NCBI GenBank assembly: GCA_000004695.1
Contig: CM000152.2
Coordinates: 672,001-736,000, forward strand
Length of the DNA: 64,000 nt
Direction of reading: 5' to 3'
Origin: Dictyostelium discoideum
Lineage: Eukaryota
The notes below the pieces were generated by a model. That model saw nothing but the letters and a program-made list of their open reading frames with translations, searched no databases and had not been told where the DNA came from. Position 1 is the first letter of the stretch; each line of letters begins with the position of its first letter. Positions 1,736-13,187 of the stretch are shown in pieces. The translations under genes were made by a program, and so were the position numbers.

Positions 1736-3487
1736 ATGTTAAAAAAATCATTATTTATTTATTTATTTATTTTTTTTAATTTTATAATTAAAATAACGAC
1801 AGCAGCAACAAGTGTAACATATTATGTTAGTGTTAATAATGGTAATGATAATATACCATGTGGAGAGAGTTTAGAAAAGTCATGTCAATCAATTCAATAT
1901 GTATTTAATCAATATAATTCAACCTATTTAAATAGTCAAGATATTATTGAAGTTATGATATTATTAGATGATGGTGAATATATTGGTGAAAATAATGTGA
2001 ATTTTAATATTTACAATATGACAATCACTATTCAACCAATTAATAATTCAAAAACACCGTCACCAGTAACATTCAATGGTATTAACAGTGCCGGTGATAG
2101 AGTTTTTAATATCACTGAACCATATTTAATTAAAACCAATGAAACAACGATTCAATATGGCATAAATTCAACATCATTAACATTAAATAATTTAAATTTC
2201 ATTAATTTCAATCCAACTATTGGTAATGGTAATGGTACCATTGGAAATGGTGCAATCATATTCATTGATATATTCAACTCATCATTATCTTTATCAATTA
2301 ATAAATGTAATTTTAATAATAATCAAGGTAATAAAGGTGGTGTGATTTATATGGAGTCTGAATTTTATAGTGATGGCAATAACCTTGTTGAAATTAGTAT
2401 AAAGAGTTCACAATTTACAAATAACAATGCAACTATATCAGGTGGTGTTGCTTATTTGGATGGATTTAATGATATTTATATTGACACTTGTTTATTTGAT
2501 AATTCATATTCACCAGTGTCTGGTACCTCAACATTATTCATATCAAATGGTGAATTTATTGAAATTAGAAGATCAAATTTCACAAGAAATCAAATTGCAT
2601 CAACTGTTGAATTATTTGGAATTCAATATAAGAATGGATCAATGGTAAAGGATTGCTTGTTTGATGGTAATGTTGTCAATGGTAAAGGTGGTGCAATTTC
2701 AATGTACCTAAGTTGGTTATCTGTTGATGGCACATTATTTAATAATAACTATGCTGGTGCAATTGGTGGTGCGATCTTTGCTACTGGCGTATCAAGTTAT
2801 TTACTTGTTGCAAATTCAAAATTCATTGATAATAAATCAAGTGGTGCTGGTGGCGCTATTGCAACTCAAGGTAGTGTTTACACGAGTTTAAACAATTGTG
2901 AATTCATTTCAAATTCTGCAAATGCCGGTGGTTCATTATCTTTTGAATATTCAAATCAAATTCATTTAAGAAATTGTACAATCAGTGGAAATGTTGGTGT
3001 TGGTCAAGGTGGTGCAATCTATTCATCCTATTCAACGATTTCAATGGATGATACTAAAATTAGTGCCAATCAAGCTTACCAAGGTGGTGCTGTCTATTGC
3101 TCCGCTTCAACTTTAAATATTACCAGTTCAAATATCCCATTGAATGGTAATACCGATCTTGGCAATGGTACAGACTCTTATGAATGGAAAGGTGAGGATG
3201 GTATAAAAGTCAATGATTATGGTATTTATTGTGCTCTAACTCCAACCTATACCTATTGTACTGTCAATGGTGATACACCTTATAGTAAACTTTGCGGTGA
3301 ATCCGATGTCACTGAACTTTCAGGTTTAACAGCTGGTCAAATCGCTGGTATTGTCATTGGTTGTACTATTGGTGCTGGTATTTTAGCTTTTGGTTTAGCC
3401 TGGGTTATCTCAAAAACAACTATTAAAGAACATTTCATTAGACTAAGAAGCTCTTCAACTTCTAATACATCTTATTCACTAAATTAA
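1736..3487 (+). CDS. Secreted/type I membrane protein with GGAI-type parallel beta-helix repeats (PMP-like), about 583 aa
   Basis: The track ORF 1598..3487 begins in a poly(T) tract read as poly-Phe. The likely real start is the ATG at 1736 (MLKKSLFIYLFIFF, a signal peptide). There are at least 8 repeats of a G-G-(A/V)-(I/V/L) motif spaced about 20-25 aa apart (NKGGVIYM, SGGVAYL, GKGGAISM, GAIGGAIFA, GAGGAIAT, NAGGSLSF, GQGGAIYS, YQGGAVYC). Many NxS/T sequons. A C-terminal TM helix (IAGIVIGCTIGAGILAFGLAWVI) is followed by a short cytoplasmic tail. Confidence 0.75.
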   Translation: MLKKSLFIYLFIFFNFIIKITTAATSVTYYVSVNNGNDNIPCGESLEKSCQSIQYVFNQYNSTYLNSQDIIEVMILLDDGEYIGENNVNFNIYNMTITIQPINNSKTPSPVTFNGINSAGDRVFNITEPYLIKTNETTIQYGINSTSLTLNNLNFINFNPTIGNGNGTIGNGAIIFIDIFNSSLSLSINKCNFNNNQGNKGGVIYMESEFYSDGNNLVEISIKSSQFTNNNATISGGVAYLDGFNDIYIDTCLFDNSYSPVSGTSTLFISNGEFIEIRRSNFTRNQIASTVELFGIQYKNGSMVKDCLFDGNVVNGKGGAISMYLSWLSVDGTLFNNNYAGAIGGAIFATGVSSYLLVANSKFIDNKSSGAGGAIATQGSVYTSLNNCEFISNSANAGGSLSFEYSNQIHLRNCTISGNVGVGQGGAIYSSYSTISMDDTKISANQAYQGGAVYCSASTLNITSSNIPLNGNTDLGNGTDSYEWKGEDGIKVNDYGIYCALTPTYTYCTVNGDTPYSKLCGESDVTELSGLTAGQIAGIVIGCTIGAGILAFGLAWVISKTTIKEHFIRLRSSSTSNTSYSLN

Positions 3488-3546: not shown

Positions 3547-3574
<28 letters not shown>

Positions 3575-3815
3575 TAAACCATTTCTTTAAAGAAATAATT
3601 TTCCCAAGATTTTTTTTTTTTTTTTACTTTTTTTTTTATTTTATATTTTTTCAAATTAAAACAGTGGTGTTTTTGATATTCCCACATCAGGTGATAATAA
3701 ATAAAATCAAAAAAAAAAAAAAAATCAAAAAAAAAAAAAAATAAATTACTTTCTTTGTTGGTGCCCTAAAATTAACCAAATAAAAAATAAACCAAAGAAA
3801 AAAAAAAAAATATGC

Positions 3816-3846
<31 letters not shown>

Positions 3847-4359: not shown

Positions 4360-4395
<36 letters not shown>

Positions 4396-4611: not shown

Positions 4612-4651
<40 letters not shown>

Positions 4652-4728
4652 AAATTATTAAAAAATATGTGGTTGGAAAAAAAAAAAATCAGTTTTTGTT
4701 TGTCTTAGGAATACAAAAAATAATAACA

Positions 4729-7700
4729 ATGAAGAAATATAATTTTTTATTTTTAATTTTTATTTTAATACATATATCACAAAAAACTTATTCCCAATCA
4801 AGTAAGTGGAAAAAAAAAAATAAAAAAAAAATAAAAAAAAATAAAAAATAATAATAATCAACCAACAAATTTTTTTATTTTAAAATTAAGCTATTAAATT
4901 GAGTTTTTTGGTGTACGATCACACTCCATCAAGAAATCCAGATTTCGAAGCTGCAAATAGTGGAAGGGTTGAAAAGGGTTTAGTAAAAACAGATTTAGGA
5001 GCTGATGGAACACCAGTTTATTGTTGTGGCAGAACCAAGAAAGCATCAATAACAAGTGAAACAACTTTTTATTCTTGGTTTCATAATAAACCTGGTACAA
5101 ATTTACCAATTAATAAAGAAATTACATTGACTCAAAGTACAACAAATCCAAACATTTATTCTTATACCAATGGATCATTTTTTATTATTGACGGAGAAGG
5201 TTTTGATGATAAAGTAATTTTTTTAAATTTATAATATTTTTATTTATAAAATTTAATTTTAATTTTAATTTTTTTTTTTTTTTTTAATTATTAAAATGAT
5301 AAAAAGACAAAATATCCCAACGAAAAGTTATATTATGATCCTGCTAAAAAAGCAAGAAATTTTCATTATTGTATGTAAATCTTATTTTCATTTGAAAAAA
5401 AAAAAAGCTAATAACATTCAATTCAATAGGTGCTCAGGCTCATACACAATTCCAATATAAAACAGGTGATATTTTTTCATTTACTGTATGTTAAAATAAT
5501 TTTTTAAACAAAAATTTATAAATTTAATATTAAATATTTTAAAAAACAATTTAAAGGGCGACGACGATGTTTGGGTTTTTATAAATAATAAACTTGCTGT
5601 TGATTTAGGTGGAATGCATCCACTCTTCATCATCAATTAATCTAGATCAATTAGGGTTGACAAATGGCGCAAATTATAACTTTGATTTTTTTTATTGTGA
5701 AAGACACACTGATGGCTCAACAATACAAATTACAACATCATTAAAATTTGTTTGTCCGTAAGTTTTAGATTTTAAATTAACAAAATAAGAGAAAAAGAAA
5801 AAAAAACAAAAATTAATAAAGTATAATTTAATTATTAGATTTTATGATGGATGTGGAGTTTGCCAAGGTGATAACTCAAGTTGTTGTTTGCCAAGTAATT
5901 GTGACCAAAATCCAAAATATACTGCAAGTTGCCTCCAAGCAAAATGTGTTAATGGTCTTTGCAATGTTCCAGTAACTAGTTGTTCATCTGCAACTCCTTG
6001 TTTTGACAGCGTTTGTACACCATTTGTTGGATGTTCATTGGTACCAAAAAATTGTTCATCTGCCGACTATTGTAGATTGGATTACTGCAATCCAACCATT
6101 AATGCTTGTCAACATGATCCTATTCCTGATTGTATTAGTGTAAATATTTTTTAAATTTTTTAAAAAAAAAATTTTAAAAATTATATAGATTTTAATTTAT
6201 CATTTTATAGTGTTCAAATATAGGTTGTTTAACAACAGATAAATGCTTCCCAAAATCGTATGTTCATTAATGATTTTATTTTAATTTTTAAAAAAGCTAA
6301 AAGTGCTCTAACTTTGATTATATTTTTTATAACCTTCTAAAATATAGATGCAGTCCAGATGGAAAAAGTTGCATTACCAATACAAAATCATGTGATGATA
6401 ATAACCCTTGCACTACAGATACTGTAATATTATATTAAAAATAATTATATTTTTTATTTATTTATTAATTTTAGTTAACCATTTTCCCCCTAAATCACAG
6501 TGTTCAAATGGTAATTGCTTTTACCAAATTATTCCAGATTGTATAAATTGTGGTGGTAACCAATGTTTCAATACTGATAAATGTAATCCAACATCGTAAG
6601 TAAAACAATTTATTTTTGTTTATATTTAATTATCTGGATAATTAACAATATAAAAAATTAAATTATAGATGCGCTTCTGATGGTAAATCATGTGCTCAAG
6701 TCCATGTACTTTGTGATGATCAAAATCACTGTACAGATGATAGTGTATGTAAATAATTGTATTGCTTTTTTTTTTTCTTTTTTTTTGGACATGTGGAAAA
6801 TAAAAAAATCACACCCCACATTCCAACAACTTTGTTAACAAAATTTTTTATTTTCCTCAACTTACAATTTAAAAAATAAATAAATAATTTATAGTGTTCA
6901 AATGGATATTGTATTTCAAATCCTATACCAAATTGTATTGATTGTCCAGACACTGCTTGTATAACAACAGATTTTTGTAATGTTCAAGTGTAGGTTTAAA
7001 ATTAATCTAAAAAATTTAATTAACCAAATTATTAACAATACAAATGATTTTTATTATATTTTATACTAAATAGATGTAGCCCAGATGGAAAAAGTTGTGT
7101 TTCATCTCCAAAAAATTGTAATGATACCAGTTTTTGTACTATTGATAGGTAAATACAAATATTTTATTTGTTTAAAATTTAAAATTTGGATTTTCTAATT
7201 TTAATTATTTATATTTATTAGTTGTAATTCACCAAATGGAACGTGTTCACATTCATTTCCAGATCCTAAATGTGTATCTTGTGCATCCACATCATGTACT
7301 ACAACTGATGATTGCTTAGTTCAAGTTTGTAGTGATGATGGAGCCAGTTGTAATTCAATACCAAAAAATTGTGATGACAAAAACCCTTGTACACAAGATA
7401 GGTAAATATATTTTTATTTCATTAAAATAAAAACAAAAAGAATCAAAATTTTCAATTTTTTAATTATTATTTTAAATAAATAGTTGCTCAAATAATGGAG
7501 TTTGTGCATACACTCCCATTCCAAATTGTTCAATTTGTAACAGTACTTTCGGCTGCATTACCACCGATTTATGTCAACCAATGGTTTGTACAGATCCAGA
7601 TCTTAAATGTGAGATAGATCAAACTCTATGTAATGATGATAACTTTTGTACCACTGATAGTTGCTCAGGAAATGGTATTTGTGCACACACTCCTGTTGAT

Positions 7701-10700
7701 AGTTGTTTAACCTGTTCAAAAAATATTGGTTGTATTACTGTAGATAAATGTAATCCTCAGATGTATGTAATCATTATACCACTAATTAAAATAAATTTAA
7801 TTTTCCATCCCAATTAACTTTTTTTTTAAAAAAAAAAGCTGTTCAAATGATAATAAATCATGTATCACCGGAGATAATGGGTGTGATAAAGGTGATAAAT
7901 GTTCAATAGCTTCATGTGAATCGCCAGCAGGTAATTGTAAATCAACTCCAGTAGTTTGTGATGATAATGATCCTTGTACAATTGATAGGTAAATATAATT
8001 ATTAATAAAATATCATGATTTTAATTATAAACCTCTAACATCCTCTTTTAATTATTTTAATAGTTGTAACCCAGCAGATGGAACTTGTGTACATCAAGAT
8101 ATTAATAACTGTGCTGAATGTGGTAAACTTGGATGTATTACAAGCAATCCTTGTCAGCCAGTTTCTTGTTCAATCACTGGCACAGAATGTAATAAAACAA
8201 AAATTTCATGCGATGATAAAAATCATTGCACTCAAGATGCGTAAGTAAAAAAAAAAGAAAAAAAAACTTGTTAAAAGATAAACTATATTAATATTTTAAA
8301 ATAATTCTTTTTTTAGATGTTCGATAAAAGATGGCTCTTGTTATCATGCAACAATTAATAATTGTATTGATTGCGCAAATCAAGCGTGTATTGTAAGTTT
8401 AAAAACATTTTTTGATAATATGTTTTTAAAAAATACTAATTACTATTTAAATTTGGAACAATAGACATTTGACGCTTGTAAACCAAAAAAATGTGGAGCT
8501 GATGGTAATTGCTATGAAGATCCAGTAACCTGCGATGATGGAAATGGGTGTACAATTGATAGTTGTTCAAGAAATGGTACTTGTTCAAACAAATTAATTG
8601 AAAACTGTGTTAGTTGTAATAGTAGTTTTAATTGTATAACAACCGATTTTTGTGATCCACAAATTTGTTCAGGTGACCCATTAAATCTTAGCTGTATTAA
8701 AAATATGTCAATGTGTGATGATGGAAATTATTGCACAACGGATATATGTTCTGGTAATGGAGTTTGCTCTCACTCATCACCCGATCCTTTATGTAGATCA
8801 TGTAAATCAACAAACTGTACAACAACTGATTTATGTCAACTTCAAATATGTAGTGCGGATGGTAGTGGTTGTGAAACTGATCAAAAAGGTCTTTGTGATG
8901 ATAAAGGTAAAATACAATTATATTCAATTTTAATTCAATTAATTCTAATTCAAATTCTTTTTTTTTTTTTTTAGATCCATGTACAACCGATCTTTGTGAT
9001 AAAGGAGTTTGTACTCACCCAAAAATTACTGATTGTATGGCATGTAATGAAACATTTGCTTGTATTGTAAGTTTTTTAATAATATTTGAAAAAAGTATTA
9101 CTATTACTAATTATTTTTAAAATTATAATTATGATATAGACAACAGTATTTTGTGAATATCAGATATGTAGTAGTGATAAAACCCATTGTATTCAAACAG
9201 AAAGAAATTGTGATGATCAAAATGAATGCAGTACTGATTTTTGTCAAAGTAAATATTAATATATGTTTATTTTTACTATTTTATAATTTTTAATTTTAAA
9301 ATCTAATTTTATAAAATTCTTTTTTAGACGATCAATGTTCTCATTATTTTCCTAAAGATTGTTTCTTGTGTGGAAATCAAACCTGCCATGATTATGACAT
9401 ATGCTACCCAGCCTATTGTGATATCAGCACTTCCACTTGTGCCAACACTACTTTGACTTGTGACGATAAGGACCCATGTACAAAAGATATTTGTTTTTCA
9501 GGAACGGGTTGTGGATTTGTAACTATAGATAGGTGTACAAAATGTAATGAAACTGTAGCATGCATTGAAAAGGATTTATGTAAATCATTGCAATGTCCTG
9601 CCGATGGGTCTGATGAATGTATTTCCTCTGATAAGAATTGTGATGATGGTAATCCATGTACATATTCAGAGTGTGATCCTGAAACTGGTTCATGTATAGA
9701 TTCATTCATTGAAGGTTGTTCACTTTGTTCAAAGCCAGGTGTATATTGTTATTCACAAGATAAATGTTCACCATTAATTTGTAATGATGCTGGAGATGGT
9801 TGTGTTCAAATAAGTCCAAATTGTTCAGATCACCAACGTTGTACGAATGATACTTGCTCAGATGGCCACTGTATAAATACTCCAATCGAAAATTGTATGG
9901 AATGTATTAAAAATTTTCAACCAGTTTTTTCATTCATGGATGTTTCATTATTCTCGGATAATCCCTCAAATGATTCTTTTGGCTGCTACTCCTCAGATAA
10001 ATGCGTTCATGTTGACTGTTTAACTGATCATAGCTGCAATTATACTAAAATCGTATGTGAACCAGACAATTCATGTCATGATAGTTATTGTGATCAAGGA
10101 ATTTGTTATTCTATACCAAAAGAAAATTGTGAAGTTTGCTCAAAAACTTTATATTGTATAACTGATAACCCATGTGAGCCTAGTGTCTGTTCAGATAATA
10201 AAGATTCATGTATCACCAAACCTTTAAATTGTGATGATGATGATAGTTGTACAATAGATTCTTGTAGTCCTGATACCAATTGTACTCATACCCGTATTGC
10301 AGGTTGTCGAGCAGTTCCAACAACAACTGGAATAGCACCTCACACTCACTATTGTGACTATTGTCATGATACTGAAATATGTATTCTAATTGGTGATGTT
10401 CCTACTTGTGTACCAACATCAACAACATCATCAATACCATTAACAACAGTAACAACAGATATTGAATTAGTTGTTACATCTGGTATATATTCCACTGGCC
10501 ATTTCACTGAAAGTGGAACCACTTTTGGAGATAAACCCAGTACAACCACGTCAGAATTAGTATCAACAACCTCCTCTACACCTCCTTATTACAATCTTTG
10601 CGATAGAGTAAGATGCGGTAAAGGTTTAGAATGTTATATGATTGATAATAAACCTGAATGTCTACCATCAAATTACCAATGTATGGACTGTTGGGATTTA

Positions 10701-10811
10701 CTTTGTCATCTTCAAGATTTATCTTGTAAAATGGTTTTAAATCCCCATTTCATTACTGATAAATATGGTCAAGTTTGTTGTAAATTCATACCAACGTGCA
10801 TACCAAGATAA
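4729..10811 (+). CDS. PA14-domain + Dicty_CTDC cysteine-rich repeat protein (psi/prespore-type extracellular protein), 21 exons, about 1489 codons; reading frame broken by a +1 frameshift in exon 5 (possible pseudogene or sequence error)
   Basis: Exons (all GT..AG; phases checked across every junction): 4729..4801, 4891..5213, 5307..5370, 5430..5485, 5557..5757, 5839..6139, 6211..6257, 6348..6423, 6501..6595, 6669..6744, 6895..6989, 7074..7148, 7222..7401, 7484..7762, 7839..7988, 8064..8240, 8317..8392, 8465..8906, 8975..9066, 9140..9248, 9328..10811. Exon 1 is a signal peptide (MKKYNFLFLIFILIHISQKTYSQS). Exons 2-5 encode a PA14 domain (DHTPSRNPDFE...[41 protein letters not shown]...). Exons 6-21 encode more than 25 repeats of C-x-D-D-x-N-x-C-T-x-D-x-C-S-x-N-G-x-C-x-H-x-P (the Dicty_CTDC pattern). 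The last exon adds a Ser/Thr-rich mucin-like linker and a Cys-rich C-terminal domain. Summed exon length is 4471 nt (3n+1). Confidence 0.8.
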
Positions 10812-11078
10812 ATTAAATTCTAAAACTATAGAAATGCATAATTAGGAGAAAAAAAAAAAAAAATTTTGAAAAAAATAAAAAAAAATTGGATAAAAAATGA
10901 CAACATCTGCTATAAATAAAAAATTAAAAATAAACATTACAAAAAAAAAAAAATTTATTATTTTTTATAATACCAACACTGACTCAACAAAGATATTTTT
11001 TTTTTTTTTTTTTTGATTGTTTTTTCATTTTCACTTGCCCAATTTTTTTTTTTTTTTTTTTTTTTTAATTTTACAAAA

Positions 11079-13187
<2,109 letters not shown>

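Follow-up and report, generated by a model that had tools for sequence, protein, structure and literature searches.

A two-base deletion probably makes a Psi-like PA14 gene a polymorphic pseudogene in the NC4-derived laboratory lineage of Dictyostelium discoideum

Some members of the tgr family of Dictyostelium discoideum are pseudogenes in the laboratory strain AX4 and open reading frames (ORFs) in some wild strains (bioRxiv 10.1101/2025.10.22.684067). The Psi (prespore-cell-inducing factor) family of the same species, PsiA to PsiR, is composed of exported proteins with a PA14 domain (PMC12821622). Here we describe a PA14/Dicty_CTDC gene that resembles the former in its fate and the latter in its architecture. 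It lies on the forward strand, between positions 4729 and 10811, of a stretch of 64,000 nucleotides of the D. discoideum genome (GenBank assembly GCA_000004695.1, contig CM000152.2, positions 672,001 to 736,000), which we refer to as the window. We conclude, with a probability of around 90%, that a 2-bp deletion in the NC4-derived laboratory lineage makes this Psi-like gene a recent polymorphic pseudogene, or null allele, which is intact in wild strains. We found no published account of this PA14 locus.

To model the exons of the gene, we combined open stretches with splice sites and alignments to homologues. The model is composed of 21 exons, starts with the ATG at 4729 and sums to 4,471 nt (3n+1), in agreement with the structure and the total length given in an earlier note on this DNA. 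All introns have GT..AG ends, range between 59 and 150 nt in length and between 3% and 21% in GC content, and start with GTA in 20 out of 20 cases. Projection of the model onto the corresponding loci of three other strains (L002, L003 and L004) returned one open frame in each, which is residue for residue the annotated protein P0122, P0124 and P0123, respectively, with the GT..AG pairs kept at 20 out of 20 introns. P0122 and P0123 (D. discoideum) are 1,492 amino acids (aa) long and P0124 (D. cf. discoideum) is 1,494 aa long. Since the projected translations equal independently annotated proteins, we consider the exon model validated. We also tried a GC-based gene model obtained by dynamic programming and forced to stay in frame. 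It distorted the PA14 exons, skipped exon 3 and made use of an acceptor at 5608 or of a 34-nt intron, and we preferred the exons supported by homology. The alternative acceptor at 5607-5608 turned up only through this forced model.

The reading frame changes within exon 5 (5557 to 5757), which encodes the core of the fibro-slime/PA14 domain. From 5557, the frame that enters the exon reads GDDDVWVFINNKLAVDLGGMHPLFIIN until the TAA at 5638-5640 closes it. The exit frame, read from 5558, is closed by the TAG at 5606-5608 and then continues as VECIHSSSSINLDQLGLTNGANYNFDFFYCERHTDGSTIQITTSLKFVC to the GTAAGT donor at 5758, reading ...SSSSINLDQLGLTNGANYNFDFFYCERHTDGSTIQITTSLKFVC downstream of the TAG. 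This TAG marks the 5' limit of the interval that holds the frame change, and the 29 nt from 5609 to 5637 are the sole stretch of exon 5 that is open in both frames. From exon 6 to exon 21 (5839 to 10811) the exit frame is open throughout, up to the terminal TAA at 10809-10811. In protein searches, the two halves of exon 5 each match homologues far beyond chance (best E-values of 1e-89 and 2e-84), and in an alignment of 124 sequences GDDD, G190 and H193 are invariant while ERHT is 96% to 100% conserved. The gene is otherwise recognisable and carries a frame-disrupting lesion in exon 5, which leaves a coding sequence of 4,471 nt that is not a multiple of three. The frameshift and its location in exon 5 are as the earlier note had described them.

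To define the lesion, we compared exon 5 with five other alleles, three from NCBI genomes (L002 and L004, from D. discoideum wild strains, and L003, from the cryptic species D. cf. discoideum) and two from Logan contigs (L005, SRR26869258, and L006, SRR28564541). In the alignment the exon is 203 nt long in all five, compared with 201 nt in the window and in a further assembly of AX2 type (L001, described below). The intact alleles carry CCACCCTCT where the window has CCAC--TCT. They read CAT CCA CCC TCT TCA (HPPS) across the site, or CAT CCT CCT GCT TCA in the cryptic species, while the sequence is CAT CCA C-- TCT TCA in both AX4 and the AX2-type assembly. At the protein level, P0122, P0123 and P0124 read G[GN]MHPP[SA]SSSVNLD. 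When the two missing C's are restored, the repaired protein (1,490 aa) aligns without gaps to 123 homologues over residues 173 to 235. In all of these 123 homologues, six residues separate H193, which is invariant, from [VI]N[LI]D, and only the repair by CC returns this spacing. Since the five intact alleles have a 203-nt exon 5, sequence comparison identifies the lesion as the loss of two C's at 5623/5624 from the CCC of the second proline codon, of which C5623 is the remnant, and not as an insertion.

The same deletion is present in a second laboratory-type assembly. Through an exact look-up of the protein encoded upstream of the PA14 gene we identified contig CM142509.1 of GCA_054883475.1 (L001), which is 99.6% identical to the window. 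There are no differences between the two from 4661 to 10995, a region that includes the whole PA14 gene, and the 201 nt of exon 5 are therefore shared. Elsewhere the lengths of homopolymers and a few single-nucleotide polymorphisms (SNPs) differ, and GCA_054883475.1 was therefore not copied from the reference. At the level of assemblies, the lesion thus belongs to the organism and not to one assembly only. A recent study assembled de novo AX2-214 and nine wild isolates with Nanopore and Illumina reads, with 79x coverage for AX2-214 (Holland et al., PNAS 2025; PMC12745789). The locus tags ACTFIR to ACTFIZ (D. discoideum, D. cf. discoideum and D. citrinum) belong to a BioProject that matches this study. 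Because AX2-214 is the sole NC4-derived strain of the set, we assign GCA_054883475.1 to AX2-214 by inference. AX2 on the one hand and AX3/AX4 on the other are separate derivatives of NC4. A lesion common to AX4 and to the AX2-type assembly therefore dates back to NC4 or to early NC4 stocks. A search of the Logan contigs through the ORF of the last exon, read with L or with M at its start, returned none with the AX4-type allele.

These comparisons bear on two other explanations of the missing bases. The earlier note had read the total of 3n+1 as the mark of a single-base insertion, plausibly the C at 5623. A single base inserted in an ancestrally shorter exon is compatible with the total of 4,471 nt, and the removal of one base also reopens the frame, giving GGMHPSSSSINLD. 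While the total is correct, 3n+1 also equals 3(n+1)-2, and C5623 is not an extra base but the surviving base of a CCC codon: each of the five intact alleles has two more bases, and none has one fewer. Moreover, the one-base repair shortens the spacer from the invariant His to [VI]N[LI]D to five residues, compared with six in 123 out of 123 homologues, and the resulting model (1,489 aa) is not on record in an exact protein look-up. We regard an insertion as extremely improbable. The other explanation, an error of sequencing or assembly in the AX4 reference, would mean that the strain truly carries CCACCCTCT and that the gene is intact. The Sanger coverage of the original reference was modest (8x in Table 1 of PMC12745789), and the deletion sits within a short stretch rich in C. 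However, a separate de novo assembly of a sister laboratory strain, from Nanopore and Illumina reads, shares the 201-nt exon and is identical across the 6.1 kb of the gene, while it differs at intergenic homopolymers. Nor is the loss of two out of three C's a typical error of assemblies built from Sanger reads or supported by Illumina reads. An error in the reference is therefore very unlikely. Among the options listed in the earlier note, strain polymorphism or pseudogene is supported by the intact wild alleles, whereas sequence error is made unlikely by the identical independent assembly.

Other explanations accept the two-base deletion and have the frame restored during expression. Splicing could do so in two ways, either by removing a 37-nt intron at 5609-5645 (GTGGAA...TCTAG) or by using the acceptor at 5607-5608, which would extend the preceding intron to 123 nt (5486-5608). 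Both candidate introns have GT..AG ends and reopen the frame, and the 37-nt intron is the deposited annotation of the AX2-type assembly (KAM9948825.1). However, its length, its GC content of 38% and its GTGGAA donor differ from the 59 to 150 nt, the 3% to 21% GC and the GTA of the 20 real introns, and its removal would delete the invariant G190 and H193. Thus 5609-5645 has neither the length nor the composition nor the donor of a spliceosomal intron, and the earlier note was right to reject it. In addition, the same annotation project leaves the equivalent 39 nt unspliced in the intact strains. As for the alternative acceptor, its use would remove the invariant GDDDxWVF. The skipping of exon 5 was also considered and discarded, as the exon phases show that exon 6 would be left out of frame. 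Rescue by splicing is in our view very unlikely. An even less probable route, and the least probable of those considered, is recoding. It could take the form of insertional RNA editing, or of a programmed +1 shift of the ribosome, placed either at the TAA or inside 5609-5637. The overlap of the two frames over 29 nt makes a shift geometrically possible, with nothing else in its support. Recoding sites are conserved among relatives, yet the frame runs on without a break in each of the five other alleles, with otherwise near-identical flanks in the closest relatives, so that the frame change is not shared by the orthologues. Inspection of the overlap by eye returned no known +1 shift motif. Insertional editing is known in myxomycete mitochondria but is not known in dictyostelid nuclear genes.

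The GenBank annotation of the AX2-type assembly conceals the two-base deletion. The translation of the 21-exon model without 5609-5645 (1,477 aa) is an exact match to GenBank KAM9948825.1 (ACTFIT_010025, GCA_054883475.1), where the 37 nt correspond to positions 13852-13888 of L001. Thirteen residues that the intact allele encodes (GGMHPPSSSSINL) are missing from this protein, among them an invariant Gly and an invariant His in the conserved GGxH motif. KAM9948825.1 is a frame-forced annotation artefact that hides the frameshift. It has the form of other frame-preserving artefacts, in which a very short intron is placed over a frameshift, and equals our 21-exon model with 5609-5645 as an extra intron. 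The 90%-identity cluster of the PA14 protein also contains P0122, P0123, P0124 and the Logan ORF P0125, and holds no AX4 accession, although both neighbouring genes have AX4 entries in RefSeq and UniProt. This fits with the AX4 annotators assigning no protein to the locus. The series of accessions skips XP_642283/Q54YB9 between those of the flanking genes, XP_642282/Q54YC0 and XP_642284/Q54YB8, and both skipped accessions are absent from the collection that we searched. The gap in the numbering hints that XP_642283/Q54YB9 may have been a withdrawn model of the PA14 gene and that the AX4 locus may have been called a pseudogene.

The intact locus would encode a secreted Psi-like protein of approximately 1,490 aa, in which a signal peptide and an N-terminal fibro-slime/PA14 domain precede a long Dicty_CTDC array. 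In the intact P0122, the Pfam PA14 profile (PF07691) scores 46.5 bits (cutoff 24) over residues 115 to 249, covering profile positions 8 to 145 of 147. The Fibro_Slime profile of NCBIfam (TIGR02148) scores 128 bits (cutoff 45) over residues 149 to 236, or profile positions 2 to 89 of 90, and Dicty_CTDC (PF00526) scores 106.4 bits with ten matched stretches. The intact orthologue starts with a hydrophobic leader, lacks transmembrane segments and is predicted to be secreted, and the repaired protein of the window contains 13.5% Cys. Residue 195, where the deletion lies, is within the TIGR02148 domain. In the NC4-derived lineage (AX4 and, presumably, AX2-214), the loss of two C's from the CCC codon of exon 5 at 5623/5624 would take translation out of frame after GGMHP and halt it at the premature TAA of the entry frame (5638-5640). 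The predicted product is a fragment of 199 aa that ends in the middle of the PA14 domain and that scores 26.3 bits against the Pfam PA14 profile, covering only positions 7 to 88 of 147. The premature stop lies 117 nt upstream of the junction between exons 5 and 6. Because 16 exon junctions follow it, nonsense-mediated decay is expected. The transcript is thus a likely target of this pathway, and decay would probably be accompanied by loss of function.

The intact allele occupies the orthologous, syntenic locus in conspecific strains. The three NCBI genomes have the same flanking genes as the window, with L002 and L004 representing D. discoideum, and the two Logan contigs, which are genomic, cover positions 5261 to 10881 of the window at 98.9% identity and have no interruption of the frame between exon 3 and the stop codon. 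The ratio of nonsynonymous to synonymous substitution rates (dN/dS) between pairs of orthologues ranges from 0.36 to 0.49, which indicates moderate purifying selection on the intact alleles. Both wild D. discoideum and the cryptic sister species would thus have retained the intact allele under such selection. When the differences between AX4 and L005 are polarised with more distant strains, the AX4 branch carries one synonymous, two nonsynonymous and one ambiguous change. Comparison of the exon models returned no further stop, start-codon or splice-site defect in the AX4 gene besides the deletion. Since AX4 has no second disabling change and few changes along its branch, the inactivation looks recent. 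The deletion may have been segregating in the wild source population of NC4 or may have arisen in early laboratory culture.

A few considerations weigh against our conclusion that the NC4-derived lineage carries a null allele. Both assemblies with the deletion come from this one lineage and count as one independent observation of the allele, supported at the level of assemblies. The assignment of GCA_054883475.1 to AX2-214, and of the other genomes to CR116C, OT3A and either S6B or M4B, is made from the species names and the list of strains in the paper. The dN/dS values of 0.36 to 0.49 correspond to moderate constraint only. Finally, nonsense-mediated decay, absence of the protein and loss of function are all steps predicted from the gene model.

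The gene as a whole (4729 to 10811, +), disabled in AX4, is defined by the exon model, by its projection onto three other strains and by its matches to PA14, Dicty_CTDC and TIGR02148. Its layout starts with the signal peptide and the fibro-slime/PA14 domain, continues with approximately 1,100 aa of Dicty_CTDC Cys repeats and ends, after a linker rich in Thr and Ser, in a Cys-rich C-terminus. All exons lie on the forward strand. Exon 1 (4729-4801) contains the ATG and encodes the signal peptide MKKYNFLFLIFILIHISQKTYSQS. Exon 2 (4891-5213), also supported by alignment with homologues, encodes the N-terminal part of the PA14 region, and is followed by exons 3 (5307-5370) and 4 (5430-5485). Downstream of exon 5 are exons 6 to 13 (5839-6139, 6211-6257, 6348-6423, 6501-6595, 6669-6744, 6895-6989, 7074-7148 and 7222-7401) and exons 14 to 21 (7484-7762, 7839-7988, 8064-8240, 8317-8392, 8465-8906, 8975-9066, 9140-9248 and 9328-10811).

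The genes on the two sides of the PA14 locus establish the origin of the window. Upstream, the translation of a single-exon gene (1736-3487) is exactly XP_642282.1/Q54YC0 of AX4, and the gene at 611-1477 corresponds to XP_642281.1. Downstream, a three-exon DUF647 gene (11079-11762, 11838-12262 and 12593-13187) encodes exactly XP_642284.1/Q54YB8 of AX4, while the AX2-type copy of the DUF647 protein (P0141) differs in sequence from that of the window. Because the flanking proteins match AX4 exactly and the AX2-type DUF647 copy differs, the window is AX4 chromosome 3 and not AX2. Over the first 12.4 kb, insertions and deletions between AX4 and the AX2-type assembly occur at 179, 1638-1640, 3547-3552, 3816-3818, 4364-4369, 4616-4622 and 10996-10997, all within simple repeats or A/T homopolymers of introns or intergenic regions. 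In the same region, and outside an (AAAAG)n repeat, the only SNPs are at 3691, 4652 and 4660, with no difference in coding sequence. The repeat lies in intron 2 of the DUF647 gene (12263-12592), especially at 12300-12380, where a long run of A is followed by (AAAAG)n. There the two assemblies show periodic A/G differences every 5 nt, which reflect either microsatellite variation or a difference in assembly.

For work with the AX4 and AX2 genomes, these results mean that a Psi-like gene is probably null in the laboratory lineage and intact in wild isolates. The locus is a further case in which a reference laboratory strain carries loss-of-function alleles that do not represent the species, and it bears on comparative and social-evolution studies that use AX4 as the baseline for gene content. 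The event is of an ordinary kind, chiefly useful as a correction, and opens no new biological question. It is conceivable, but improbable, that the deletion acts as a natural knockout, with a phenotype, of a secreted Psi-like protein of signalling or of the matrix, so that AX2, AX3 and AX4 would differ from wild strains in cell-type proportioning, matrix or social behaviour. If this were true, restoring CC would alter development. Expression of the allele with rescue by recoding is still less likely.

Compared with systems already described, the fibro-slime/PA14 domain of the gene shares 37% to 48% identity with bacterial fibro-slime proteins (TIGR02148). The bacterial proteins are approximately 250 to 360 aa long and often carry PEP-CTERM (PF07589), whereas this gene adds approximately 1,200 aa of eukaryotic Cys-rich repeats. 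With positions 4891 to 5757 as query, bacterial fibro-slime proteins, many of them with PEP-CTERM, account for most of the top 120 matches and precede any listed AX4 paralogue; the distribution of TIGR02148 in bacteria and slime moulds was already known. The similarity to the Psi family extends to the signal peptide, the PA14/fibro-slime domain, the Cys-rich repeats and the predicted secretion without a transmembrane segment. The leader, the PA14 domain at residues 115 to 249 and the lack of a transmembrane segment give the sequence features of a secreted protein with an N-terminal PA14 domain, as in Psi. Unlike in the Psi family, the array of repeats is very long, in a protein of approximately 1,490 aa, and the likeness is one of architecture and not of alignment to a named Psi protein. 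The best dictyostelid relatives retrieved are unnamed hypothetical proteins with 41% to 58% identity over the aligning parts. Word-indexed protein searches returned neither a named Psi sequence nor an AX4 protein for the locus, and these negatives are weak as the same searches also missed P0121 to P0124, which belong to the searched collection and are 90% to 100% identical to the queries. With the tgr polymorphic pseudogenes the locus shares a lesion in the laboratory strain, intact orthologues in conspecific wild strains and membership of a multigene family of secreted or cell-surface proteins. It differs from them in belonging to a PA14/Dicty_CTDC family and in carrying a single 2-bp deletion with no other decay.

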